DNA of 44,446 bases from Escherichia phage vB_EcoM_SHAK7704: the sequence record OR594181. One strand, given 5' to 3'. How positions within the stretch are numbered: position 1 is the first letter of the stretch; every line of letters begins with the position of its first letter. This document shows, in pieces, positions 7,846-42,998 of this stretch. The position numbers and the translations under genes were made by a program. The notes beneath the pieces were generated by a model that saw nothing but the letters and a program-made list of their open reading frames with translations, was not told where the DNA came from and made no database searches.

Positions 7846-8027
7846 TTGCATAGCTAAAGCTATAAGATGCAATTAGGTCGCGGTCGGTAGACCGCTAAGA
7901 GTAGGTAATAGTAATAAGATGCAGTAGGAGGAACACCAGAAACCTAGCCAACCTAGCCTATCCTAGCTCTGTATCTATTGCTTTCCTTAGTCTCACATGT
8001 TAGACAACCTATGTTTATCTTAGTAGT

Positions 8028-10324: not shown

Positions 10325-10342
10325 ATTTAGCTGACACTATAA
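10325..10342 (+). promoter_or_regulatory. Variant phage promoter ATTTAGCTGACACTATAA (SP6-like upstream half)
   Basis: Matches the SP6 consensus ATTTAGGTGACACTATAG except G to C at one position and A in place of the +1 G. Confidence 0.4.
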
Positions 10343-10410
10343 GAGAAGACTTAACAAGGCGTTGCTACGGTAGCGCCTGATTAAACTTTCACTTACTAGG
10401 AGTTAAGATT

Positions 10411-10638
10411 ATGGATTTAGATAGCATCATTATGGCATTTGCTCTTATTGGCTTAAGCTGGTGCTCCTATCACCTTTACCGTGAGTTCTTATTTGATAAA
10501 GCTAAACGCAAACTAAGAAAGGAAGGCGGTAATTACCTTTGTATAAGAGGTGGCTTAGTCGAATACATTGCACCTAACGGCATGGAGTGCGCCATTAACA
10601 AAGATGCATTTATAGAGACGTGGCATTACATCAAGTAG
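10411..10638 (+). CDS. Early small membrane protein
   Basis: 75 aa; N-terminal transmembrane segment IIMAFALIGLSWCSY; GGAG RBS. Confidence 0.55.
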   Translation: MDLDSIIMAFALIGLSWCSYHLYREFLFDKAKRKLRKEGGNYLCIRGGLVEYIAPNGMECAINKDAFIETWHYIK

Positions 10639-10702
10639 CTAGCCTATAGCCTACCTGTGTGGGCTATGTGATATTTACTTACCACTATATAAGGTGACTA
10701 TT

Positions 10703-11587
10703 ATGACTACTGAAAACACCCTCCTGTCTGTCCGCGAAGCTGCAACCGCTGAGATTAAGCAGCATTTGGATAATATCGGCACTTCTTACATCAAAGTAGG
10801 TGCTTGTCTGAATGAGTTACGCGGAGACTTCGAAGGTCAAAAAGAGTTCTTAGCCTATGTTGAAGCAGAGTTCGGCATCAAGAAAGCACAATGCTACAAG
10901 CTGATGAGTGTAGCCCGTGTCTTTGAAGGTGACGAACGATTCAAAGGCGTGGCTATGCGTGTAATGCTGGCGCTTGTTCCTTTCGCTGATGAGAGTATCA
11001 TCATGGAGAAGGCCGCAGAACTTGCCGCAGAGGGCAAGCTGGACACTAACGCCGTAAACGCCCTAATTGAGTCTAAGAAAGAGCCAAAGGCCGAGACGGT
11101 ACAATCTAAGGCTGAGCCAGTAAAACCGCAGGAGAACGCGGCTGAGGCCGCAGAATCACAGGAAACGCAAGCGCCGCAGGTAGTGCCGCCAATGAGTGAG
11201 CCGGACACCGACGAATCCGCACCGTGGGAGGGCGAAAGCAAGCCGGAAGCACCTAAGGCTGCGCCTCTGGACAACACTGCTAACACAGAGAACGCCGCCA
11301 TGGCTGGCCTGTTGGCACAAATTAAGGCACTGACTGAGCAATTACAGGCGGCTAACGACCGCATCGCAGCTCTAACCAGTGCACGTGAAAGCAAGAAGGC
11401 AGCCGCGCCTATGCTCCCACAATTCAAATCCAAATGTTTCTATGCTCGCTTGGGTTTGAGTGCTGAGGAGGCAGAGAAGAAAACAGCAGTGAACAAGGCA
11501 CGCCGCGAACTGGTTAAACTGGGATACGGTGAAGGCCATGAGGCATGGCCCTTAATCTCTGAGGCAGTAGAAGAATTAACTAAGTAA
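10703..11587 (+). CDS. Early hypothetical protein with Pro/Glu/Ala/Lys-rich linker
   Basis: ATG 10703 after AAGG; globular N-terminal ~120 aa, low-complexity middle, conserved-looking C-terminal ~60 aa; directly upstream of the RNAP gene. Confidence 0.6.
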   Translation: MTTENTLLSVREAATAEIKQHLDNIGTSYIKVGACLNELRGDFEGQKEFLAYVEAEFGIKKAQCYKLMSVARVFEGDERFKGVAMRVMLALVPFADESIIMEKAAELAAEGKLDTNAVNALIESKKEPKAETVQSKAEPVKPQENAAEAAESQETQAPQVVPPMSEPDTDESAPWEGESKPEAPKAAPLDNTANTENAAMAGLLAQIKALTEQLQAANDRIAALTSARESKKAAAPMLPQFKSKCFYARLGLSAEEAEKKTAVNKARRELVKLGYGEGHEAWPLISEAVEELTK

Positions 11588-11650
11588 CCTTATCGGTGGC
11601 ATCTTCTTAGGTGTCACCTATTAAGGTTTCTTTCACTAGGAGTAAACAAG

Positions 11651-14278
11651 ATGCAAGACCTACACGCTATTCAACTTCAACTTGAAGAAGAAATGTTTAA
11701 CGGCGGTATCCGTCGCTTTGAAGCGGACCAACAACGCCAGATTGCATCCGGTAATGAATCAGACACGGCATGGAATCGCCGTTTATTGTCCGAGTTAATC
11801 GCGCCAATGGCTGAAGGTATTCAGGCATACAAGGAAGAGTATGAAGGTAAAAGAGGCCGTGCACCGCGTGCATTAGCTTTCATTAACTGCGTAGAAAACG
11901 AAGTGGCAGCATATATCACGATGAAAATCGTTATGGATATGCTGAATACAGACGTTACCTTACAAGCAATCGCTATGAATGTAGCGGACCGCATCGAAGA
12001 CCAAGTACGTTTTAGCAAGCTGGAAGGTCACGCAGCTAAGTACTTTGAGAAAGTGAAGAAGTCGCTTAAGGCTAGCAAGACTAAATCTTATCGTCATGCG
12101 CACAACGTAGCGGTAGTAGCTGAGAAATCTGTTGCTGACCGTGACGCGGATTTCTCCCGTTGGGAGGCATGGCCTAAAGATACCTTGCTACAAATCGGTA
12201 TAACCTTGCTAGAAATACTGGAAAATAGTGTATTCTTCAATGGTCAGCCTGTCTTTCTTCGCACCTTGCGCACTAATGGTGGCAAGCATGGCGTTTACTA
12301 CTTACAGACCAGTGAACACGTAGGGGAATGGATTACAGCATTTAAAGAACATGTAGCGCAACTTAGCCCGGCTTATGCACCTTGCGTTATACCTCCGCGT
12401 CCGTGGGTTTCTCCTTTTAATGGCGGTTTTCACACTGAGAAGGTAGCAAGTCGTGTGCGTCTTGTTAAAGGCAGCCGTGAACACGTCCGCAAGCTGACCA
12501 AAAAGCAAATGCCAGCGGTTTACAAGGCTGTTAACGCTTTGCAGGCGACTAAATGGCAGGTTAACAAGGAAGTTTTACAGGTTGTTGAGGACGTAATACG
12601 GCTTGATTTAGGCTATGGCGTACCTTCCTTCAAACCACTCATCGACCGCGAGAACAAGCCAGCTAATCCGGTGCCGTTAGAGTTCCAGCACCTGCGAGGC
12701 CGTGAACTGAAAGAAATGTTAACACCGGAACAATGGCAAGCCTTCATCAACTGGAAAGGTGAATGCACCAAGCTGTATACCGCTGAGACTAAGCGCGGCA
12801 GCAAATCGGCGGCGACCGTCCGCATGGTAGGGCAGGCCCGTAAATACAGCCGATTTGACGCAATATACTTCGTGTATGCTCTGGACAGCCGCAGCCGCGT
12901 CTACGCGCAATCTAGCACGCTCTCTCCACAATCAAACGACTTAGGCAAGGCATTGCTCCGTTTTACCGAAGGGCAGCGTCTTGATAGCGCTGAGGCGCTT
13001 AAGTGGTTTTTGGTGAACGGGGCTAATAACTGGGGTTGGGATAAGAAAACTTTTGACGTGCGCACCGCTAACGTGCTGGATAGTGAATTTCAAGACATGT
13101 GCCGCGACATTGCAGCGGATCCGCTGACCTTCACTCAATGGGTAAATGCCGACTCCCCTTACGGCTTCCTTGCATGGTGCTTTGAATATGCGCGTTATCT
13201 GGATGCACTGGATGAAGGCACGCAAGACCAATTCATGACGCACCTCCCAGTCCATCAAGATGGTAGTTGTTCTGGTATCCAGCACTACAGTGCTATGCTA
13301 CGCGATGCAGTAGGTGCGAAAGCGGTAAACCTTAAGCCCTCTGACTCACCTCAAGATATTTATGGTGCCGTTGCGCAGGTAGTAATTCAGAAGAATTATG
13401 CATACATGAATGCAGAGGATGCGGAAACCTTCACTTCTGGCAGCGTGACTTTAACAGGTGCAGAACTTCGTAGCATGGCTAGTGCGTGGGATATGATAGG
13501 AATCACTCGCGGCCTGACCAAAAAGCCTGTAATGACACTACCTTATGGCAGCACACGTCTAACCTGCCGTGAATCAGTGATTGATTATATCGTTGATTTG
13601 GAAGAAAAAGAGGCCCAACGGGCTATTGCGGAAGGGCGTACCGCCAATCCTGTACATCCTTTTGATAATGACCGCAAAGACAGCCTGACACCTAGCGCAG
13701 CTTATAACTATATGACAGCTTTAATCTGGCCTTCTATTTCGGAAGTGGTTAAAGCTCCTATAGTGGCAATGAAAATGATTCGTCAGCTTGCACGTTTCGC
13801 AGCTAAAAGAAACGAAGGCTTAGAATATCCCTTACCAACTGGCTTCATCTTGCAACAAAAGATAATGGCTACCGATATGCTCCGCGTATCCACTTGCTTG
13901 ATGGGTGAAATCAAGATGAGTCTCCAGATTGAAACAGATGTAGTTGATGAAACGGCAATGATGGGTGCGGCTGCCCCTAACTTCGTCCATGGTCACGATG
14001 CTAGCCACCTGATTCTGACTGTATGTGACCTAGTGGATAAAGGTATTACATCCATTGCAGTCATCCATGATTCTTTCGGTACTCATGCAGGACGTACCGC
14101 AGACCTGCGGGATAGCTTAAGGGAAGAAATGGTTAAGATGTATCAAAACCATAATGCCCTGCAAAACCTGCTAGATGTGCACGAAGAGCGTTGGTTAGTA
14201 GACACCGGAATCCAAGTACCAGAGCAAGGAGAGTTTGACCTTAACGAAATCTTAGTTTCAGACTATTGTTTCGCATAA
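11651..14278 (+). CDS. Single-subunit DNA-dependent RNA polymerase (T7 gene 1-like)
   Basis: 875 aa; C-terminus ...DYCFA like T7 RNAP ...FAFA; preceded by early genes. Confidence 0.95.
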
Positions 14279-14351: not shown

Positions 14352-14367
14352 GTCTCACATGTGAGAC
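14352..14367 (+). repeat. 16-bp perfect palindrome GTCTCACATGTGAGAC (copy a)
   Basis: Directly upstream of the promoter at 14370. Confidence 0.8.
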
Positions 14368-14387: not shown

Positions 14388-14543
14388 GATAGCCGTCGGA
14401 GACGGGAAAGAAAGGGAAGATAAAGGATATAAAGGAAGTAATAGGTATTAAAGGTTATATAGGTTATCTAGGAATACCTAGGAATACCTATTACCTTCTT
14501 CCTTCCTCTTATTACCACTTAGAGGAAGGGCAGACCTAGGTTG
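14388..14543 (+). other. Origin-like repeat region between two phage promoters
   Basis: AT-rich; AAAGGA iterons; tandem ctaggaataccta/ggaataccta; inverted repeat GGAAGTAATAGGTATT...AATACCTATTACCTTCC. Confidence 0.45.
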
Positions 14544-14559
14544 TCTCACATGTGAGACT
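14544..14559 (+). repeat. 16-bp palindrome GTCTCACATGTGAGAC (copy b)
   Basis: Directly upstream of the promoter at 14564. Confidence 0.8.
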
Positions 14560-14962: not shown

Positions 14963-16950
14963 TGGCTATTATTAATAACATCCCGTGCCCTGCCTGCCAG
15001 AAGAATGGACACGATAAATCCGGCAATCATCTCATGATATTTGATGATGGTGCTGGCTATTGTAACCGTGGTCATTTCCACGATAACGGCAAGCCTTACT
15101 ATCATAAGCCAGAAGGTGGCATCGAGATCACCGAGTTGCCTATTACTGGCAATATCAAATATACACCTTCTCAATTCAAAGAGATGGAGAAGGAAGGGAA
15201 GATAAGCGACCCTAAGTTACGCGCCATCGCACTTGGTGGTATGCGTATGAAAGACCGATGGGAGGTCATGAATGAGCAAGAAAGGGCAGACCAAGAAGCA
15301 GAGTGGAAACTTGATGTTGAATGGTTCCTCACGCTTAAGCGTAAGAATCTTGTTTCCCGACACATTCGCGGCGACATTTGCGCATTGTATGATGTACGTG
15401 TCGGACACGATGAAGATGGTAGAGTCTCACGGCATTACTATCCACGCTTCGAGAAAGGTGAGCTAGTAGGCGCTAAGTGTCGCACATTACCTAAAGACTT
15501 TAAGTTTGGTCATTTAGGTAAACTCTTTGGTATGCAAGATCTTTTCGGTATGAATACTTTGTCTCACGTGTTAGACAAGGGAAGACGAAAGGATTGCTTG
15601 CTTATTGTAGGTGGTGAACTTGATGCACTAGCAGCACAGCAAATGCTCCTTGATTCTGCCAAGGGTACTAAGTGGGAAGGCCAGCCTTACCATGTATGGT
15701 CTGTCAATAAAGGTGAGTCTTGCCTTGAAGAGATAGTACAGAACCGTGAACACATCGCCCAATTTAAGAAGATTATATGGGGTTTTGATGGCGACGAGGT
15801 GGGGCAGAAGCAGAATCAGCAAGCGGCTCGCCTGTTTCCTGGCAAATCCTATATCCTTGAATACCCTTCTGGTTGCAAAGATGCTAACAAGGCATTGATG
15901 GCTGGCAAGGCTAAAGAGTTTGTTGATGCTTGGTTTAATGCCAAGTCATCTGATGAAGTCTTTGGTAGCCAGATTAAATCTATCGCATCTCAAAGGGATA
16001 AGCTCAAGGCTGCACGTCCAGAGCAAGGACTATCATGGCCTTGGCCTAAGCTGAACAAGGTAACGCTAGGTATTCGTAAGAACCAGCTTATCATTGTAGG
16101 TGCAGGTTCTGGTGTAGGTAAGACTGAGTTCCTCCGCGAAGTGGTTAAACATCTCATTGAAGAACACGGTGAATCTGTAGGCATCATTTCTACAGAAGAC
16201 CCAATGGTCAAGGTGTCCCGTGCTTTTATCGGCAAGTGGATTGATAAGCGTATTGAGTTACCGCCAACCAACGACCCGAAAGAAGACGGATACCGTGAGG
16301 TGTTCGACTACACCGAGGAAGAAGCTAACGCTGCCATTGATTATGTAGCTGATACAGGAAAGCTATTTGTGGCTGACCTAGAAGGCGATTATTCTATGGA
16401 GAAGGTAGAGCAAACTTGCCTAGAGTTTGAGGCTATGGGCATTTCTAATATCATCATTGATAACTTAACGGGGATTAAATTAGATGAGCGTGCTTTTGGT
16501 GGGAAGGTTGGTGCACTTGATGAATGCGTCAAACGAATTGGTACTATCAAAGACCGACATGCGGTTACGATTTTCCTTGTCTCTCACCTTACACGTCCTC
16601 CGGCAAACCGTACCCAACACGAAGAAGGTGGCGAAGTTATCCTTTCTGACTTCCGAGGCTCAGGCGCTATCGGATTCTGGGCATCTTACGCCTTGGGGAT
16701 TGAGCGTAATACAAGAGCTGAAACGCTTGATGAAAGGACTACCACGTACATCTCGTGTGTCAAAGACCGCGATCAAGGTATCTACACTGGAACCAAGGTC
16801 ATGCTTAAAGGTGACATTCAGACCGGACGTTTGATGGAACCACAAGCCCGTACTAAGTCATTTGATACAGGTGAAGCAAGGCAGCAAGAGGTGCCTGATT
16901 TACCGGACACTATAGAAGAGACAAACTTTGAAGATGAACAGGAGTTTTAA
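14962..16950 (+). CDS. DNA primase/helicase (T7 gp4-like)
   Basis: 662 aa; N-terminal Cys4 zinc motif CPAC...C..GH; Walker A GAGSGVGKT; acidic C-terminus ending in Phe (EDEQEF). Confidence 0.9.
   Translation: MAIINNIPCPACQKNGHDKSGNHLMIFDDGAGYCNRGHFHDNGKPYYHKPEGGIEITELPITGNIKYTPSQFKEMEKEGKISDPKLRAIALGGMRMKDRWEVMNEQERADQEAEWKLDVEWFLTLKRKNLVSRHIRGDICALYDVRVGHDEDGRVSRHYYPRFEKGELVGAKCRTLPKDFKFGHLGKLFGMQDLFGMNTLSHVLDKGRRKDCLLIVGGELDALAAQQMLLDSAKGTKWEGQPYHVWSVNKGESCLEEIVQNREHIAQFKKIIWGFDGDEVGQKQNQQAARLFPGKSYILEYPSGCKDANKALMAGKAKEFVDAWFNAKSSDEVFGSQIKSIASQRDKLKAARPEQGLSWPWPKLNKVTLGIRKNQLIIVGAGSGVGKTEFLREVVKHLIEEHGESVGIISTEDPMVKVSRAFIGKWIDKRIELPPTNDPKEDGYREVFDYTEEEANAAIDYVADTGKLFVADLEGDYSMEKVEQTCLEFEAMGISNIIIDNLTGIKLDERAFGGKVGALDECVKRIGTIKDRHAVTIFLVSHLTRPPANRTQHEEGGEVILSDFRGSGAIGFWASYALGIERNTRAETLDERTTTYISCVKDRDQGIYTGTKVMLKGDIQTGRLMEPQARTKSFDTGEARQQEVPDLPDTIEETNFEDEQEF
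16898..16915 (+). promoter_or_regulatory. Phage RNAP promoter ATTTACCGGACACTATAG inside the primase/helicase 3' end
   Basis: 18-mer lies in coding sequence and encodes ...PDTIEE... Confidence 0.6.
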
Positions 16951-17124: not shown

Positions 17125-17148
17125 GCTTGTCTCACATGTGAGACAGGC
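17125..17148 (+). terminator. Palindrome-family hairpin with T-rich tail (copy c)
   Basis: GCTTGTCTCACATGTGAGACAGGC followed by tcttatt. Confidence 0.45.
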
Positions 17149-18298: not shown

Positions 18299-18322
18299 GG
18301 TTGTCTCACACGTGAGACAGCC
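18299..18322 (+). terminator. Palindrome-family hairpin (CACGTG core variant) with T-rich tail (copy d)
   Basis: GGTTGTCTCACACGTGAGACAGCC followed by tttcatc. Confidence 0.45.
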
Positions 18323-23202: not shown

Positions 23203-23218
23203 GTCTCACGTGTGAGAC
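23203..23218 (+). repeat. 16-bp palindrome GTCTCACGTGTGAGAC (copy e)
   Basis: Perfect palindrome; directly upstream of the promoter at 23234. Confidence 0.8.
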
Positions 23219-35955: not shown

Positions 35956-36677
35956 TGGCTATAGGTTCAGCCGTTATGGCTGGTATGTCTTCTATTGGTA
36001 GCATGTTTGCAGGCAGTGGTGCAGCAGCCGCTGCTGGAGGTGCTGCCGCAGGTGGCGGAGGTTTGCTAGGTTCACTAGGTGGATTCCTAAGTGGCTCTAC
36101 TGCTGGTTTCTCTAATGCCGGCCTTCTTGGTGCTGGCCTTCAAGGGTTAGGCTTGATTGGTGATCTATTTGGTGGAAGTGATGAAGCCAAGGCGATGAAG
36201 AAAGCACAAGAAGAGCAATGGCGGCAGCAGCTTATTGCTACACAAGAGGCGTACAAGACAGTGGCAGACGCAGAACGTTCTGCTGCTAAACAATATCATG
36301 CAGATGCAATCAGTAATCAGGCTTCACTGCTACAGCAGCGAGCACAGGTTGCATTACTTGCTGGGGCTACTGGTACTGGTGGTAATTCTGTGTCCTCTAT
36401 GCTTAACGACTTAGCAGCAGATGGCGGCAGGAACCAGAGTACTATCATTGATAACTATGAGAATCAGAAGATTAATTTCACCAACCAGCTTAAGTCTATC
36501 CAACGTGGTGGTCAGATGCAGATGCGTGAGTTTAAGAAGCCTTCTGCTATGAATACCTTGGTTAAAGGTATTCCAAGTCTGGCATCTGCCTATGTAACTG
36601 GTAGTAAGTCTGGCAAGGCATTGGGTAAAGCCTTAACTGATTCTCGCACATATTCATCTGGAACAAGAGGTATTTAA
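35955..36677 (+). CDS. Internal virion protein (Gly/Ala-rich)
   Basis: ATG 35955 after AAAGGAGG; Gly/Ala-rich N-terminus. Confidence 0.65.
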   Translation: MAIGSAVMAGMSSIGSMFAGSGAAAAAGGAAAGGGGLLGSLGGFLSGSTAGFSNAGLLGAGLQGLGLIGDLFGGSDEAKAMKKAQEEQWRQQLIATQEAYKTVADAERSAAKQYHADAISNQASLLQQRAQVALLAGATGTGGNSVSSMLNDLAADGGRNQSTIIDNYENQKINFTNQLKSIQRGGQMQMREFKKPSAMNTLVKGIPSLASAYVTGSKSGKALGKALTDSRTYSSGTRGI

Positions 36678-39625
36678 TGGCAATTGAGCGACAAGCAGTA
36701 CAAGGTCTGCCACAAGTGCAGGCCACTTCTCCTAATGTCATGACCTTTGCACCTCAACAAGTGGGAGGTGTGGAGGCTGGCGTGGCTTCTACCTCCGGTA
36801 GTAGATTTATCGAAGACCTTATTCGTGCAGCAAGCAGCGTGGCTGATGTTACCACTGGTATCCTTAATCAGAAGATTGAGGAAGATAAGGTTGTTCAGAT
36901 GGAACGGGCATATAACGGATTAATGCCTTCTGAGGATGCAACTCGTGGTGGCGCTCGTGCTAACATGCTTGTCAAAGCTCAACTGCTAGCTAATGATGAA
37001 GCAGCACGAATGAAAGACATGGCTACTCGTTTCCAAGGGACGGATGACGAGTGGACACAACTTATGGTTGACTCTCGTAATGAGATGCAGAATAAGCTGT
37101 TCCAGCAATACCCTGAGTTGCAAGGTGACAAAGATACTATGCGTATGGTCACTAATGTCTTCCAAGAACAGCAGCCTCAGATTTGGGCTACACGGACCCA
37201 GCATAAACTTGACCGTGAACAAGCAGACCGTGAGGATACCTTTGACGGGCGAGTGGCTTCTACTTGGGATTCTAATATTGACCCTGAAGCTTCTGGCTAT
37301 GCTTTACAGGAACGAATCCGCGAAGGTCTTACTCAAGGATTACTACCTGAACAGATGCACAAGAAGTTAGTCCAGCGAGCAATTTCACTTGCACAAGGCG
37401 GTGATGTTAGCATGGCTGAAGCCCTGAAGTATGTGAAGGACGATAATGGTGTTTCTGTTTATGCTAAGAATCCACAGCTTATCACAGCCATCACTAGTGG
37501 TAATGCAGTTTGGGCTAGGAATAATGTAGCTGATGTAACTCGTATGTCTTTCGAAGTTAAAGAATCATACCTTGCAGGTGATTTAACTGATGAAGAATTG
37601 TTGGAACGAGCACAGCACATTAATAATCTGACAGGTAACTATGTCTTCTCTAATCCAGAACTAGAGGCACTGATGCGCCAAAGGGCTAAGCAGAATGCAG
37701 AGCTAGGTGCAATGCAGGATATGCGACGTGAGCTTTACTCCGACCGCCTGACTGGCTTCCAAGGTAAGACTGATAAAGAGAAGAAGGCTTACATTGATGT
37801 TATCAAACAGGATAGCCAACTTTATGCAGACCAGCAAATCAAACAACGTGGCTTGGATCCTTACAGTCAAGAGGCTGAAGCTATTCGTGGTGCAGTGGAA
37901 GTGCAGCGTCTGCAATTCATGAACTCCAAAGGCTTAGTGGATGACACCTTTGAGTCTCGTATCAAAGCCATGGAATCTATGCTATCGCCTGAGCACTTTG
38001 CCAAGGGCGAACCACAGGAGTTGATGACTATTCGCCAGTTGTGGGAACAGTTGCCAGAAGAGAGCCGAGGTGTCTTTGGTGACACGGTTAATGGCTACAT
38101 GGATAACTACAACACTGCACTACAAATGGGAGAGACACCTTTGCAGGCTGCAAGGTTTGCGCGTGAAGCACAGCAGAAATTCTCTCGTACTGAGAAGGAA
38201 ACCAAGAAGTTCAACTCAGCTATTGGAGATGCGCTGGATGAGGTATCTGGTGCTGGCTGGTTTGATGGTAAAACCGAAGTGTCAGACTTAGGTAAAGCTA
38301 TTGCGGAAGAAGAGTTACGAGCTAAGGCCAATATGTTGTGGTCTAGCGGTATGCGTAACATGGATTCTATCAAGAAGGCTTTAATTACTTGGGGCAATAA
38401 ACGCTACACTCAATCAGAGGATGCAAAGACTTCCGGTGGCTATTTCATTAAAGGTGATTACACTTCTGCATCTGATATGCTTATGTCAGTTGGGAAAGGC
38501 GTAAACCCTACCGATGTACCTCTGGCGCTTGGTAGGTATGTAGAAACACAGATGCCAGAATTGAAGAAGGAGCTTCAAGAGTGGGAAACTAAAGATGATA
38601 TATACATTGATTACAATGAACAGAAAGGAACTTTTGTGATTCGTGCTGGTGCAGCAGGTCGCCCTCTTTCTGGAGTAATCCCTGTAACCTCTTTAGATAC
38701 TACTTCACTACTAGATTCTGCCTATCAGAAGAAAGTAGAGGAACGAGATAAAGGCGAGTATGTTCACCCGTATCGTACAGATATTGGTGCACAAGAGCCT
38801 ATGCCAGCTAAACCAACTGCCAAAGATATTGGTAAATTTGGACTAGCTAACTTCCTCATGTCTTCTGCTTTTGCTTCTGGTGAGAATCTACCTTCTAACT
38901 TCGAGATTAACTATCGAGGTAATATGCAACAATTCTATGACAAGCTAGCTATGGATGAGAATAAAGATAAAGTTGGCTTTAATAAGGCAACTGGAACCTT
39001 TACTCCATATAAAGACGCTCACGGTGAGTCTATCGGTTACGGTCATTTCTTAACGGAAGAAGAGAAGCGAAACGGGTATATTAAGATTGGCGATGAACTA
39101 GTTCCCTATCGAGGGTCTATGTCTCAGCTTACAGAGAGTAAGGCTCGCGCTCTTATGGAGCAAGATGCTAAGAAGCATGTGCCTCCTACTCGTGACTGGA
39201 AGATTCCGTTTGACCAGATGCATCCTGCACAGCAACGTGGCTTGATGGATTTAACCTACAATTTAGGTAAAGGTGGAATCCAGAACTCACCGCGTGCTCT
39301 TGCTGCATTCAAAGCTGGTAAGCTTACGGAAGGCTTTATCGAAATGCTGGGCACTGCATCAAGTGAAGGTAAGCGTATTCCTGGCCTACTGAAGCGACGC
39401 GCTGAGGCATACAATATGGCATCTGCTGGTGGTGTGCCTAAGATTACCGAAGTGGAGACTCGTGAAGATAGCTCCATGTGGGTTAGGTTTGGTGGACCTA
39501 TGCCAGCAGGTTCTGTCTCGGCATGGACTCATAAACGTATTGGCGCGGATGGTTGGTATCAGGTTTATGAGGCTGCACCTACCAAGTTAGCTAAAGGTTC
39601 TAAGGTAGGTAAAGTTAAGTTGTAG
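36677..39625 (+). CDS. Internal virion protein with C-terminal lysozyme-like domain
   Basis: 982 aa; C-terminal region has GESIGYGH in a T4-lysozyme-like context. Confidence 0.7.
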   Translation: MAIERQAVQGLPQVQATSPNVMTFAPQQVGGVEAGVASTSGSRFIEDLIRAASSVADVTTGILNQKIEEDKVVQMERAYNGLMPSEDATRGGARANMLVKAQLLANDEAARMKDMATRFQGTDDEWTQLMVDSRNEMQNKLFQQYPELQGDKDTMRMVTNVFQEQQPQIWATRTQHKLDREQADREDTFDGRVASTWDSNIDPEASGYALQERIREGLTQGLLPEQMHKKLVQRAISLAQGGDVSMAEALKYVKDDNGVSVYAKNPQLITAITSGNAVWARNNVADVTRMSFEVKESYLAGDLTDEELLERAQHINNLTGNYVFSNPELEALMRQRAKQNAELGAMQDMRRELYSDRLTGFQGKTDKEKKAYIDVIKQDSQLYADQQIKQRGLDPYSQEAEAIRGAVEVQRLQFMNSKGLVDDTFESRIKAMESMLSPEHFAKGEPQELMTIRQLWEQLPEESRGVFGDTVNGYMDNYNTALQMGETPLQAARFAREAQQKFSRTEKETKKFNSAIGDALDEVSGAGWFDGKTEVSDLGKAIAEEELRAKANMLWSSGMRNMDSIKKALITWGNKRYTQSEDAKTSGGYFIKGDYTSASDMLMSVGKGVNPTDVPLALGRYVETQMPELKKELQEWETKDDIYIDYNEQKGTFVIRAGAAGRPLSGVIPVTSLDTTSLLDSAYQKKVEERDKGEYVHPYRTDIGAQEPMPAKPTAKDIGKFGLANFLMSSAFASGENLPSNFEINYRGNMQQFYDKLAMDENKDKVGFNKATGTFTPYKDAHGESIGYGHFLTEEEKRNGYIKIGDELVPYRGSMSQLTESKARALMEQDAKKHVPPTRDWKIPFDQMHPAQQRGLMDLTYNLGKGGIQNSPRALAAFKAGKLTEGFIEMLGTASSEGKRIPGLLKRRAEAYNMASAGGVPKITEVETREDSSMWVRFGGPMPAGSVSAWTHKRIGADGWYQVYEAAPTKLAKGSKVGKVKL

Positions 39626-39638
39626 TACCTAACTCAAG

Positions 39639-39662
39639 GCTTGTCTCACATGTGAGACAGGT
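39639..39662 (+). terminator. Palindrome-family hairpin with T-rich tail (copy f)
   Basis: GGCTTGTCTCACATGTGAGACAGG followed by tctttat. Confidence 0.45.
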
Positions 39663-39689: not shown

Positions 39690-42600
39690 ATGGAACAAGA
39701 CATTAAGACTAATTGGGCTGGATATGTCCAGTCTACTCCTGAGCCGTTTTCTATTGAGGCGGCTCCGGTATCGGCTCCTACGATACGCCAGCGTAATGAG
39801 TTACAAGAGCAAGTTCTTGAAGCTAAAGCTGACGCTGATATTTTAGGTGCTGTAGGTGCTGCCTTCCAGAATGAGTGGTTGGCATTCGGAGGCAAGCGGT
39901 GGTATGACCGTGCCACTGCTGATTTCACACCTCAACCAGACTTTGAGATACAACCTGAGCAACGTGAAGCACTACGTTTCAAATATGGTACGGATATGAT
40001 GCAGACAATCACTGAGGGTGTTCGTTCTGAGGATGAATTGAACTTCCGTATTCAGAATGCTGATGAAGACCTTGAGCGCAATAAGCGCATTGCTCAGGCT
40101 GGCTGGGTTGGCTCTGTGGCGACGATTGGCGCTGCTGTGCTTGACCCTGTGGGATGGGTTGCCTCTATTCCAACCGGTGGTGCCGCTAAAGTTGGACTCG
40201 TAGGACGTGCTGTGCGTGGCGCTATCGCCGCTGGCGTGAGTAATGCCGCTATTGAATCCGTATTGGTCCAAGGTGACATGACTCGTGATTTAGATGACAT
40301 TATGGTAGCACTAGGTTCCGGTATGGCGATGGGTGGCGTTATTGGCGCTGTAGCGCGTGGTAGGGCCACTAAGCTCAGTGAGCAAGGGGATGACAGGGCT
40401 GCGAGCATTGTGCGCAGTGCAGACGCAGGGGACCGCTATGTGCGTGCTGTTGCTGATGATAGTATCGGTGCGATGCGTGTTAAGGGTGAAGAGGTACTCA
40501 CGGAGGGTGCATTTGATGTCTCTAGCAAAGGTGAAGATTTGCTGAAAACCCTACAGCGGGAAGGTAATGCAATTGATATGACCCCTCGCCGCTGGGCCGG
40601 AACTCTGTCTGCCCTTGGTACTGTCGTACATTCCTCTCAGGATGCAAGTGTACGCGGCCTTGGTGCTCGCCTGTTTGAGTCCCCCCAAGGCTTAGGTATG
40701 CAGAAGGCATCTGCTAGTCTCATGCAGAATACTAACTTGAACCGTCTGAAATCTGCTGATATGAATCGTTTCAACGATGGGTTCGATTTATGGCTCAAAG
40801 AGAATAATATCAACCCGGTTGCAGGTCATACTAACTCTCACTATGTGCAGCAATATAATGAGAAGGTATGGGAAGCTGTACGCATCGGTATGGACGAGTC
40901 TACGCCTAAGTCTATCCGTATGGCAGCAGAGGGGCAGCAAGCTATGTATCGTGAAGCATTAGCATTACGTCAACGCTCTGGTGAAGCTGGGTTTGAAAAG
41001 GTTAAAGCAGATGATAAGTACATGCCTGATATTTTTGACAGTATGAAGGCTCGTCGTCAATTCAGTATGCACGATAAAGAGGACATCATTGAGTTATTCT
41101 CTCGTGCATACCAGAATGGTTCTCGTAAGGTTCCAAAGGAAGTGGCTGATGATATTGCACGAGCACAAGTAAACCGCGTTGCTGATGCCACCTTGACCGG
41201 ACAGCTTAGCTTTGAAAAGGCTATGTCTGGTCAAACCAAAGCAGAATATGAAGCACTCATGCGCAAAGCAGGCTTTAGTGATGAAGAGATTGAAAAGATG
41301 GTAGAAGCTCTGGATAATAAAGAAACCAGAGATAATATCTCTAACCGAGCTAAGATGAGTTTAGGCTTAGATGTTACTCAAGAGTACAATGGTATTCGTA
41401 TGCGTGACTTTATGAACACTAACGTGGAAGAGTTAACAGATAACTACATGAAGGAAGCGGCAGGTGGTGCTGCCTTGGCTCGTCAAGGTTTCTCTACCTA
41501 TCAGGCTGCACTTAATGCAATTGATCTTGTAGAGCGAAATGCACGAAATGCAGCTAAAGATACAAAAGCACACGCACAATTTGAAGCGGAGTCGGCTAAG
41601 ATCCGTCAATCAGAGCCTGATTACAAGAAGGCACAAGAGAAGATTGAAGAGTTAAAGAAGCGACTTAAATTGAAAGAGAAAGATGAAGCAGCAGGTCTGG
41701 CTATTGATGAAGAAATCCGTCAGATGCGAGAGGGGCTTCGCTTGATTATGGGTAAATCTATCGATTCAAACCCACAAGATTTGTCTACTAAAATGCTGCG
41801 TCGTGGGCGTGACATTACAGGCGTACTTCGCTTAGGTCAGATGGGCTTCGCACAGCTAGGTGAACTTGCTAACTTCATGGGTGAGTTTGGTATTGCTGCC
41901 ACCACTATGGCTTTAGGTAAGCAATTCCGCTTCACCTCTAAGGCGTTGCGTAATGGCGATGGCTTCTTTCGAGATAAGAATTTAGCTGAGGTTGAGCGAA
42001 TGGTAGGTTACATTGGTGAAGACAACTGGCTAACAACTAAGGGTGCGCGTCCAGATGAGTTTGGTGATGTAACCACAGTGCGAGGTATGATGGCCCATTT
42101 TGACCAGTCCATGAACTCTATACGACGTGCTCAGACAAACCTATCCCTCTTCCGCATGGCACAGGGTTCTCTGGAGCGAATGACCAATAGGCAAATAGCT
42201 TTGTCTTTCATTGACCACCTTGAAGGCAAGAAGATTATCCCTCAGAAGAAACTGGAGGAACTTGGTCTTACTCAGGAGTTCATGACTAACCTACAGAAGC
42301 ACTATGATGCTAACTCTAAAGGTTCTGGCTTGCTTGGCTTTGATACAATGCCTTATGCCATGGGTGAAACTTTAGCTAATGCTATTCGTCGTAAGTCAGG
42401 TCTAATTATCCAACGTAACTTCATTGGTGATGAAGGTATCTGGATGAACAAAGCACTAGGTAAGACATTTGCACAGCTTAAGTCATTCTCTCTTGTATCT
42501 GGTGAGAAGCAATTTGGTCGAGGGATTCGACACGATAAAATTGGTCTTGCTAAGAAGACAGCTTACGGGTTTGCTTTGGGTTCAATAGTGTATGCGGCAA

Positions 42601-42998
42601 AAGCCTATGTGAACTCTATTGGGAGAGAAGACCAAGATGAATATTTGGAAGAGAAGTTATCGCCTAAAGGGTTGGCCTTTGGTGCAATGGGTATGATGAG
42701 TACAACTGCTGTATTTAGTCTAGGTGGAGATTTCTTAGGTGGCCTAGGTGTTCTACCTTCTGAGTTAGTACAATCCCGTTATGAGGCTGGCTTTCAGACT
42801 AAGGGTTTGATAGACCAAATACCACTAGTAGGTGTTGGTCAAGATGCATATCGTTTAGCAGATTCTATAACTAAATATGCAGAGGGTGATACAGAAGGTG
42901 TAGATGTGGCACGTAGGGCTTTACGCTTAGTGCCTCTAACTAATGTAATAGGAATCCAGAACGCATTGCGTTATGGCTTAGATGAACTGGAGGATTGA
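39690..42998 (+). CDS. Large internal virion (ejection) protein (gp16-like)
   Basis: 1102 aa; largest structural gene before the tail adaptor. Confidence 0.75.
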   Translation: MEQDIKTNWAGYVQSTPEPFSIEAAPVSAPTIRQRNELQEQVLEAKADADILGAVGAAFQNEWLAFGGKRWYDRATADFTPQPDFEIQPEQREALRFKYGTDMMQTITEGVRSEDELNFRIQNADEDLERNKRIAQAGWVGSVATIGAAVLDPVGWVASIPTGGAAKVGLVGRAVRGAIAAGVSNAAIESVLVQGDMTRDLDDIMVALGSGMAMGGVIGAVARGRATKLSEQGDDRAASIVRSADAGDRYVRAVADDSIGAMRVKGEEVLTEGAFDVSSKGEDLLKTLQREGNAIDMTPRRWAGTLSALGTVVHSSQDASVRGLGARLFESPQGLGMQKASASLMQNTNLNRLKSADMNRFNDGFDLWLKENNINPVAGHTNSHYVQQYNEKVWEAVRIGMDESTPKSIRMAAEGQQAMYREALALRQRSGEAGFEKVKADDKYMPDIFDSMKARRQFSMHDKEDIIELFSRAYQNGSRKVPKEVADDIARAQVNRVADATLTGQLSFEKAMSGQTKAEYEALMRKAGFSDEEIEKMVEALDNKETRDNISNRAKMSLGLDVTQEYNGIRMRDFMNTNVEELTDNYMKEAAGGAALARQGFSTYQAALNAIDLVERNARNAAKDTKAHAQFEAESAKIRQSEPDYKKAQEKIEELKKRLKLKEKDEAAGLAIDEEIRQMREGLRLIMGKSIDSNPQDLSTKMLRRGRDITGVLRLGQMGFAQLGELANFMGEFGIAATTMALGKQFRFTSKALRNGDGFFRDKNLAEVERMVGYIGEDNWLTTKGARPDEFGDVTTVRGMMAHFDQSMNSIRRAQTNLSLFRMAQGSLERMTNRQIALSFIDHLEGKKIIPQKKLEELGLTQEFMTNLQKHYDANSKGSGLLGFDTMPYAMGETLANAIRRKSGLIIQRNFIGDEGIWMNKALGKTFAQLKSFSLVSGEKQFGRGIRHDKIGLAKKTAYGFALGSIVYAAKAYVNSIGREDQDEYLEEKLSPKGLAFGAMGMMSTTAVFSLGGDFLGGLGVLPSELVQSRYEAGFQTKGLIDQIPLVGVGQDAYRLADSITKYAEGDTEGVDVARRALRLVPLTNVIGIQNALRYGLDELED

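Follow-up and report, generated by a model that had tools for sequence, protein, structure and literature searches.

A ParB-fold, J-like early protein of SP6/K1E-type podophages and the dispersed palindromes that co-vary with its predicted recognition helix

The stretch of DNA analysed in this study (the window) is the 44,446-nucleotide record OR594181 of Escherichia phage vB_EcoM_SHAK7704, a circularly permuted genome of a K1E/K1-5-type podophage (Vectrevirus, Molineuxvirinae). Our subject is the early gene at 10703-11587 directly upstream of the SP6-type RNA polymerase (RNAP) gene, together with a palindrome that is dispersed through the same genome. A preliminary description, made from the letters alone, had recognised a 294-aa early open reading frame (ORF) adjoining the RNAP gene and had proposed it as a candidate host-takeover factor of unknown type. 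The ORF stands as described, separated by a gap of 63 nt from the RNAP ORF, which begins at 11651. Here we provide evidence that its product combines a KorB/ParB-type DNA-binding fold with a J-like domain, and that two residues of its predicted recognition helix co-vary with the half-site of the palindrome. The gene and its translation signal are as follows.

10703-11587, plus strand: target ORF, 294 aa and a stop codon, ATG start, the K1E gp6 / SP6 gp6-type early protein (PHROG 4571), by ORF call and homology.
10691-10696, plus strand: Shine-Dalgarno sequence AAGGTG, read directly from the sequence, with the ATG 6 nt downstream.

An alternative GTG start at 10694 falls within the Shine-Dalgarno sequence, and gene 6 of K1E is annotated with the identical length of 294 aa. 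The region 10400-11800 shares 100% identity with Escherichia phage vB_EcoA_fTuEco01 and ~92% DNA identity with K1E (gene 6), and the PHROG 4571 profile covers the whole protein (E 1.1e-129, residues 1-294 on positions 1-287 of 289). PHROG 4571 is without an assigned function and the gene is labelled 'hypothetical' in all records; one genome paper states gp6 to be of unidentified function (PMC4099482), and literature searches found no functional data on gp6.

Relatives were gathered by an exhaustive representative search, a simpler homologue search having given only relatives of >90% identity; the related loci were searched with sub-alignments, the full 109-sequence alignment being without a conserved stretch. 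The family is found at full length in 213 deposited phage genomes, all of them podophages of ~42-47 kb, and forms 141 clusters at 50% identity, with hosts in Escherichia, Klebsiella, Salmonella, Proteus, Erwinia, Pectobacterium, Vibrio, Pseudomonas, Ralstonia, Marinomonas and Shewanella. The gene order of family gene, RNAP, primase/helicase and DNA polymerase (DNAP) is kept even at ~33% identity, and synteny with RNAP spans Molineuxvirinae, Colwellvirinae and beyond; T7 and phiKMV have neither the family gene nor the palindrome family. The preliminary description had placed the gene in the position of the T7 gp0.7 kinase/host-shutoff gene, which it indeed resembles as an early gene immediately 5' of the RNAP gene. 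However, Vibrio phage phiA318 (L009) carries an annotated protein kinase gene (1988-2884) between its gp6 homologue and its RNAP gene, and since a 0.7-like kinase and the target family occur there together, the target gene is not a positional substitute for gp0.7; the analogy thus fails. The family is moreover a core gene, retained with its synteny in podophages that diverge widely, and in this it is unlike typical host-takeover accessory genes. Unlike gp0.7, to which it has no sequence or fold similarity, the target protein has no kinase domain: Pfam and NCBIfam gave no kinase match, GxGxxG, HRD, DFG and APE motifs are absent, as the preliminary description had noted of kinase motifs in general, and the fold is all-helical, comprising a helix-turn-helix (HTH) and a J-like part.

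The three-part layout first read from the sequence, with a globular N-terminal domain, a Pro/Glu/Ala/Lys-rich middle and a conserved C-terminal ~60 aa, agrees with the AlphaFold2 (AF2) model, the composition and the family alignment, and its parts are placed on the window as follows.

10730-11077, plus strand: N-terminal six-helix domain (aa 10-125) of the KorB/ParB-type DNA-binding fold; DUF3102 at family level.
10838-10924, plus strand: predicted HTH (aa 46-74), with helix 46-57, turn G58-I-K and recognition helix 61-74 (KAQCYKLMSVARVF).
10898-10900, plus strand: codon of Lys66; this residue and Gln63 (codon 10889-10891) co-vary with the three inner bases of the palindrome half-site.
11078-11278, plus strand: disordered acidic Pro/Glu/Ala/Lys linker (aa 126-192), from AF2 and composition.
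11219-11230, plus strand: short linear motif A-P-W-E (aa 173-176) in acidic surroundings; in the family it reads [acidic]-x-P-[FW]-[DE], often PFDTGA.
11279-11404, plus strand: long amphipathic helix (aa 193-234) that probably dimerises as a coiled coil, helical in AF2 and with 9 of 12 a/d positions hydrophobic.
11405-11584, plus strand: near-invariant LPQF cap (aa 238-241) and J-like domain (aa 239-293), with GYGEGH replacing HPD.

The predicted local distance difference test (pLDDT) score of the model is ~97 for aa 10-125 and 239-293 and ~50 for aa 126-192. Searches with the window protein as a single sequence (Pfam, NCBIfam, PADLOC, PDB) gave nothing usable, and the domain identification therefore rests on family-level profiles and structure; the per-domain check by hidden Markov models and structure prediction assigned folds to both ends in this way and failed where one sequence was used. 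The N-terminal domain has the fold of the KorB/ParB/SopB/VirB DNA-binding type, as a test for a ParB/KorB-type HTH fold found, and the helix pair at aa 46-74 is a putative HTH by its helix-Gly-turn-helix pattern in the model. With this fold at one end and the J-like domain at the other, the label 'unknown type' can be replaced. DUF3102 (PF11300) is matched by 33 of the 109 relatives (best E 1.5e-7) and by the window protein not at all at E <= 10, which limits this assignment to the superfamily level; Foldseek with the full-length model against PDB gave no significant match, KorB/ParB themes appearing only at E > 1. A ParB/Srx-type CTPase domain was not found: the protein starts 9 residues before the DNA-binding domain (DBD), there is no ParBc Pfam match, and none occurs among the 25 commonest families in the 109 relatives. 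The linker consists of 18% E, 16% P, 16% A and 9% K, with a net charge of -9, and is unconserved except for the P-[FW]-[DE] motif, which recurs at the equivalent position in 42 of the 109 relatives (DIPFD or PFDTGA elsewhere) and which we take to be reminiscent of the acidic aromatic tip of single-stranded DNA-binding protein (SSB) tails. Distant members of the family (P0129-P0235, e.g. P0150, P0166, P0213 and P0224) carry an extra N-terminal region of 70-250 aa with a recurrent (L)K..K ... (A)RTKA.F pattern, and this region is absent from the window protein.

The C-terminal ~60 aa are the best-conserved part of the family (LPQF...RLGL, with G251 invariant) and adopt the J-domain helical fold, with helices I-IV and a II/III hairpin. 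The family profile against PDB reached a best E of 6e-4, with ~20 J-domain chains at E < 1; hhalign of the family against DnaJ gave a probability of 72.6% (E 3.2e-5), the HPD of DnaJ being aligned to GYGEGH; and PF00226 was matched by 11 of the 109 relatives (best E 1e-5), the window protein alone having no Pfam match. The HPD tripeptide occurs in 0 of the 109 relatives, in which the loop reads GYGEG-H or IYTxxxNPEA, and canonical stimulation of an Hsp70 ATPase is therefore not expected. Fold matches include the Tim14/Tim16 pair and the J-domain of SV40 T antigen, and the HPD-less J-like protein Tim16/Pam16 is the closest analogue of the C-terminal domain; unlike both Tim16/Pam16 and DnaJ/Hsp40, the target has the near-invariant LPQF cap and is fused to a DNA-binding domain. 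Lacking both HPD and a CTPase domain, the protein thus represents a new domain combination, neither a true J-domain protein nor a canonical ParB. Its likeness to housekeeping proteins is confined to domains and folds.

It could be proposed from these features that the protein is a host-takeover factor acting mainly on host components, with an HTH that binds host DNA or serves only as a scaffold. The HPD-less J-like domain, with its basic helix II, might then trap or mis-regulate DnaK or DnaJ, as Tim16 regulates Tim14, or the acidic P-[FW]-[DE] motif might mimic an SSB-tail-like ligand. The early position next to RNAP, the J-like fold with its likeness to the Tim14/Tim16 pair, the recurrence of the linker motif in those 42 relatives and the strongest conservation in the C-terminal module all speak for such a role. 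However, the missing HPD argues against canonical Hsp70 co-chaperone action, no PADLOC or host-factor family was matched, the family keeps a fixed synteny across phages of ten of the host genera named above while host-takeover genes are usually variable, and the recognition helix follows a cis-element of the phage rather than of the host (see below); we therefore regard a role in host takeover as improbable.

The cis-element in question is the palindrome GTCTCAC-NN-GTGAGAC, with six perfect copies in the window, all intergenic (14352, 14543, 17129, 18303, 23203 and 39643), and one-mismatch copies at 7990 and 15561, eight in all. The copies, none of them assigned to a strand, are the following.

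7990-8005: hybrid half-site copy GTCTCAC-AT-GTTAGAC at the genome left end, ~24 nt 5' of sigma70-like early promoters, without RNA structure.
14352-14367: GTCTCAC-AT-GTGAGAC, 2 nt 5' of the phage promoter 14370-14390, the first after the RNAP gene.
14543-14558: copy 5 nt 5' of the phage promoter 14564-14584.
15561-15576: GTCTCAC-GT-GTTAGAC within the primase/helicase ORF, conserved in position, its half-site changing in concert across genera.
17129-17144: intergenic copy in a 13-bp RNA hairpin (dG -19.7, z -6.4).
18303-18318: intergenic copy in a 13-bp RNA hairpin, 5' of the DNAP region (dG -18.0, z -5.9).
23203-23218: copy 15 nt 5' of the phage promoter 23234-23254 (class-II).
39643-39658: copy in a 13-bp RNA hairpin between two internal-virion-protein genes (dG -17.6, z -4.9).

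Matches with <=3 mismatches number 9 in the window against 1.5 expected, and 0 of 100 shuffles reach 9; isolated half-sites (monomer sites) are not enriched. The window form is (T)GTCTCAC-RY-GTGAGAC(A), with R-Y as the central dinucleotide in every listed site, and the family-wide form is GTCT-NNN-(N2/3)-NNN-AGAC. There are 7-9 palindromes per genome in K1E, SP6, Era103, cp4 and K13, compared with ~0.05 in shuffles, and they lie at orthologous positions. The palindrome resembles parS (TGTTTCAC and GTGAAACA versus TGTCTCAC-nn-GTGAGACA). Rfam had no match in the window, the literature search found no paper containing the sequence, and the palindrome family, at orthologous positions across genera and with half-sites that evolve in concert, has not been described before; some of its positions have been called Rho-independent terminators (PMC4837284; also published genome annotations).

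Some of the palindromes lie beside phage promoters. Sites <=20 nt 5' of a phage promoter make up 3 of the 8-9 in K1E-like phages, SP6 and cp4 (binomial p ~1e-5) and 2 of the 7 in Era103 (p 4e-4), and the equivalent of the left-end copy in Era103 and PM116 adjoins the first phage promoter. At least two palindromes lie between the RNAP and primase genes in almost every lineage, the interval which in T7 is occupied by phi1.1A/B and the primary origin. This raises the possibility that the protein is an origin-recognition or replication-initiation factor that marks the RNAP-primase interval and the left end, its J-like domain or acidic motif loading or remodelling replication proteins as in viral initiators that combine a J-domain with origin binding; such a factor would be a specific version of the operator-binding regulator proposed below and overlaps with it. 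In its favour, the left-end site lies in the position of T7 phiOL, the RNAP-primase sites lie where T7 has its primary origin, and the SV40 T antigen J-domain is among the fold matches. Against it, further copies are found in the middle and late regions, also between virion genes and within an ORF, phages of this group have no mapped origin, and T7, to our knowledge, needs no such protein, so that we consider a dedicated origin factor rather unlikely.

The palindrome and the protein family go together. All examined genomes and long loci that bear the family have palindromes on the GTCT...AGAC frame, a genome mostly containing 4-9 perfect copies and a locus of 10-20 kb mostly 2-9; the copies of SP6 are mainly hybrid, and none was seen in a family-bearing Ralstonia locus of 6.8 kb (L004). 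When 2.9 million viral contigs were scanned for the N3 form, all 6 contigs with at least three copies encoded the family, and 68 single-copy loci did not. The half-site is uniform within a genome and differs between lineages, and even the copy in the primase/helicase ORF follows the concerted change, although an amino acid is thereby replaced (SHVLD to SNVLD). Concerted half-sites of this kind suggest that the element is read in trans by a factor that differs between lineages, and they speak against a conserved host enzyme.

The two residues of the recognition helix follow the half-site class. Q63/K66 is found with GTCT-CAC in K1E-like and Era103-like phages, phiA318, Achelous-like phages and related lineages, Q63 with N66 or H66 is found with GTC[CT]-AAC in SP6, cp4-like and K13-like phages, PP1 and PM116, and Y63/R66 and W63/R66 are found with GTCT-ACA and GTCT-AGT, respectively. 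On the RNAP tree, N66 lineages surround that of K1E (K66), with Era103 and the Vibrio/Pseudomonas clade also K66, and this placement requires at least two coupled switches of residue and half-site. Residue 66, sixth in the helix after the Gly-containing turn, would occupy a usual base-contacting position, and the observed pairs fit the classical amino-acid/base preferences, Lys facing a G:C pair and Asn facing A. On the other side, a control over all proteins common to six genomes found that 168 of 9082 columns (1.8%) split alike (7 of 251 in the target protein and 5 of 869 in RNAP); columns split in this way not being rare, the initial co-variation is weak on its own.

Residue 747 of RNAP (~13889-13891) is Ser in K1E and Era103 and Arg in SP6, cp4, PM116 and K13, the same split as the half-site type, and from this alignment column RNAP could be an alternative or additional reader of the palindrome. 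Among the other conserved proteins of unknown function, none has a recognisable DNA-binding domain. In the two large internal virion proteins (36677-39625 and 39690-42998), K1E-like phages and Era103 share 57 and 44 columns to the exclusion of SP6, cp4, PM116 and K13, and such columns number only 1-5 in replication proteins; the pattern in the ejection proteins suggests mosaic exchange or convergent adaptation.

The association was then put to a prospective test, in which half-sites were predicted from residues 63 and 66 before new lineages were fetched. The prediction held for the distant long-form Q/K member L174 (GTCTCAC, four copies) and for L175 (GTCTCAC, six copies), as well as for the two Y/R lineages L173 and L190, with GTCTACC and GTCTACA, L173 being a contig of 1-2 kb with two sites. 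It also held in L180, a Vibrio phage Vc1-like contig, and L184 (Q/K, with Y65S), where the half-site is GTTTCAC and the inner CAC is kept, and a new H/R class came with a new half-site, GTAACAC. The second co-variation, of Y65S with base 3, suggests a putative third position of the code, residue 65. The GTTTCAC arm of L180 and L184 is the canonical parS arm. Intergenic 10-bp tandem arrays lie near palindrome clusters in L190 (6759-6806, GACGTCATGG, at least four units) and L191 (4021-4068, CTATAGTAAG, at least four units). The spacer is N2 or N3 and varies independently of the half-site, a variation that would best fit, by analogy with KorB/ParB, two DBDs joined by a flexible linker to a remote dimerisation module.

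The palindromes might alternatively be RNA elements with no relation to the protein, such as sites for RNase III or other processing, 3' stabilisers, terminators or pause sites, with uniformity kept by a different reader or by copying, and with a protein that binds other DNA or has a non-DNA function. Part of the evidence agrees with this. Three window copies form 13-bp hairpins (dG -17.6 to -19.7 kcal/mol, z -4.9 to -6.4), in 32 of 147 distinct sites flank extensions of at least 5 bp depend on G.U pairs in the sense strand (against 0 for the antisense strand), the location between genes recalls the RNase III sites of T7, and some sites are published as Rho-independent terminators (PMC4837284). 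A subset of the palindromes thus doubles as RNA hairpins, possibly with a role in processing or stability. On the other hand, the promoter-proximal copies fold like shuffled sequence (z ~ -1) and the left-end copy 5' of the early promoters does not fold at all (z 0.1), while the core is identical in them, so that RNA structure cannot account for core conservation at all copies. Imperfections of the 7-bp arms over the 147 sites (G.U 18, A.C 15, other 22) show no sense-strand wobble bias, hybrid half-sites would produce C.U or A.G mismatches in RNA, a conserved host RNase would not require a lineage-specific concerted change, and the half-sites of new lineages could be predicted from residues 63 and 66. 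An RNA function unconnected with the protein consequently seems unlikely to us. Ordinary intrinsic terminators were rejected as a general explanation, since a U-tract is missing from the majority of copies and those near promoters are no more stably folded than shuffled sequence.

Taken together, we propose, with a rough probability of 0.55, that the protein is an early, probably dimeric, operator-binding regulator or organiser directed at the phage genome and not a host-shutoff factor. The ORF, the domain folds, the HPD absence, the conservation and synteny, the co-variation, and the palindromes themselves with their positions and concerted change were computed directly. The host-takeover role first suggested for the gene is probably wrong, the best candidate target being the phage's own promoter-adjacent palindromes, which co-vary with the recognition helix. 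Among known systems KorB of plasmid RK2, a ParB-family global repressor with dispersed operators, is the closest functional analogue. The target protein differs from it in having no N-terminal ParB/CTPase domain, in a sequence identity of 11-14%, in the operator sequence, in having a coiled coil and J-like domain instead of the KorB dimerisation domain, in the absence of an evident KorA/TrbA-like partner, and in belonging to a lytic phage that encodes an RNAP of its own. In structure, the nearest precedent for such a DBD is ParT of SCP2, a CTPase-less ParB-like protein (bioRxiv 10.1101/2024.05.08.592561). In contrast to ParT and to ParB/Spo0J-parS, the candidate half-sites of the target are 2-3 bp apart, several dispersed single sites lie by promoters, the J-like domain is fused to the DBD, and neither a ParA partner nor a partition function would be expected of a podophage that is strictly lytic; among the annotated genes of K1E, Era103, PM116 and phiA318 none is ParA-like, no dedicated search having been made. 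The literature search found no prior description of the architecture, of the palindrome family or of the link between them.

As a regulator of this kind, the protein would be made early, from host-RNAP transcripts, would dimerise through the coiled-coil/J-like module and would occupy the palindromes on the incoming phage DNA with one HTH per half-site; actual binding, dimerisation, the regulatory outcome and the partner are the layers that we infer. Recognition-helix residues 63 and 66 would specify the inner three bases of the half-site, and the remote C-terminal dimerisation would account for the 2- or 3-bp spacer. The occupied sites would be those at the left-end early promoters, at the first two post-RNAP phage promoters (the T7 phi1.1A/B position), at a third class-II promoter and in other intergenic spacers. 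Occupancy may help or gate the first phage-RNAP promoters, may stop host RNAP from reading on where the early region ends, or may mark origin-like regions, amounting to KorB-style global control of promoter use, read-through and/or origin function at the early-to-middle switch, and the J-like domain and the acidic P-[FW]-[DE] motif may recruit a partner. The fullest form of this proposal, in which residues 63, 66 and 65 constitute an evolvable code for the dispersed GTCT...AGAC palindrome, the J-like domain and motif couple the sites to a host chaperone or a replication/transcription partner, and some sites double as RNA hairpins, is put forward tentatively, at less than even odds.

Two further features lie immediately 5' of the target gene.

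10643-10670 (aligned region 10636-10690), plus strand: conserved RNA stem-loop directly 5' of the target gene, with 16 pairs, 11 of them kept by compensatory changes, over 6 lineages.
10673-10693, plus strand: degenerate phage-promoter-like sequence ATTTACTTACCACTATATAAG overlapping the Shine-Dalgarno region, with 4 mismatches to the window's own consensus and 5 to the SP6 consensus.

The stem-loop is flanked by conserved AGCCT and GTGA and may serve the gene 6 / RNAP mRNA in processing, stability or attenuation. A second degenerate promoter-like sequence, ATTTAGCTGACACTATAAGAG at 10325-10345 (consensus ATTTACTGGACACTATAGAAG), also lies 5' of the target and RNAP genes; if these promoter-like sequences are functional, the phage RNAP would transcribe the target gene and its own gene. 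In the gap between the two genes, a hairpin-forming stretch (GGTGGCATCTTCTTAGGTGTCACC, 11597-11623) approximates the SP6 promoter core on its minus strand (TAATAGGTGACACCTAAGAAG, 6 mismatches).

As sources of RNA polymerase the SP6-type phages have entered the textbooks, and they are frequent candidates for therapy against K1 E. coli, Klebsiella, Salmonella and Erwinia, while their early-to-middle switch and replication initiation are essentially uncharacterised, the solutions of T7 (gp0.7 kinase, gp2, lysozyme) being missing or different. An early DNA-binding protein with ~8 promoter-side operators would supply a concrete, testable control mechanism, would assign a function to one of the best-conserved 'hypothetical' genes of the group and would explain hairpins annotated as terminators. 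The pairing of a ParB fold with a J-like domain widens the known repertoire of both folds, and the apparent two-residue code offers possible orthogonal repressor/operator parts. If our proposal is true, SP6/K1E-type and related podophages possess a previously unrecognised genome-wide operator system, which would add a new regulatory layer to a classic phage group together with a naturally reprogrammable DNA-binding module.

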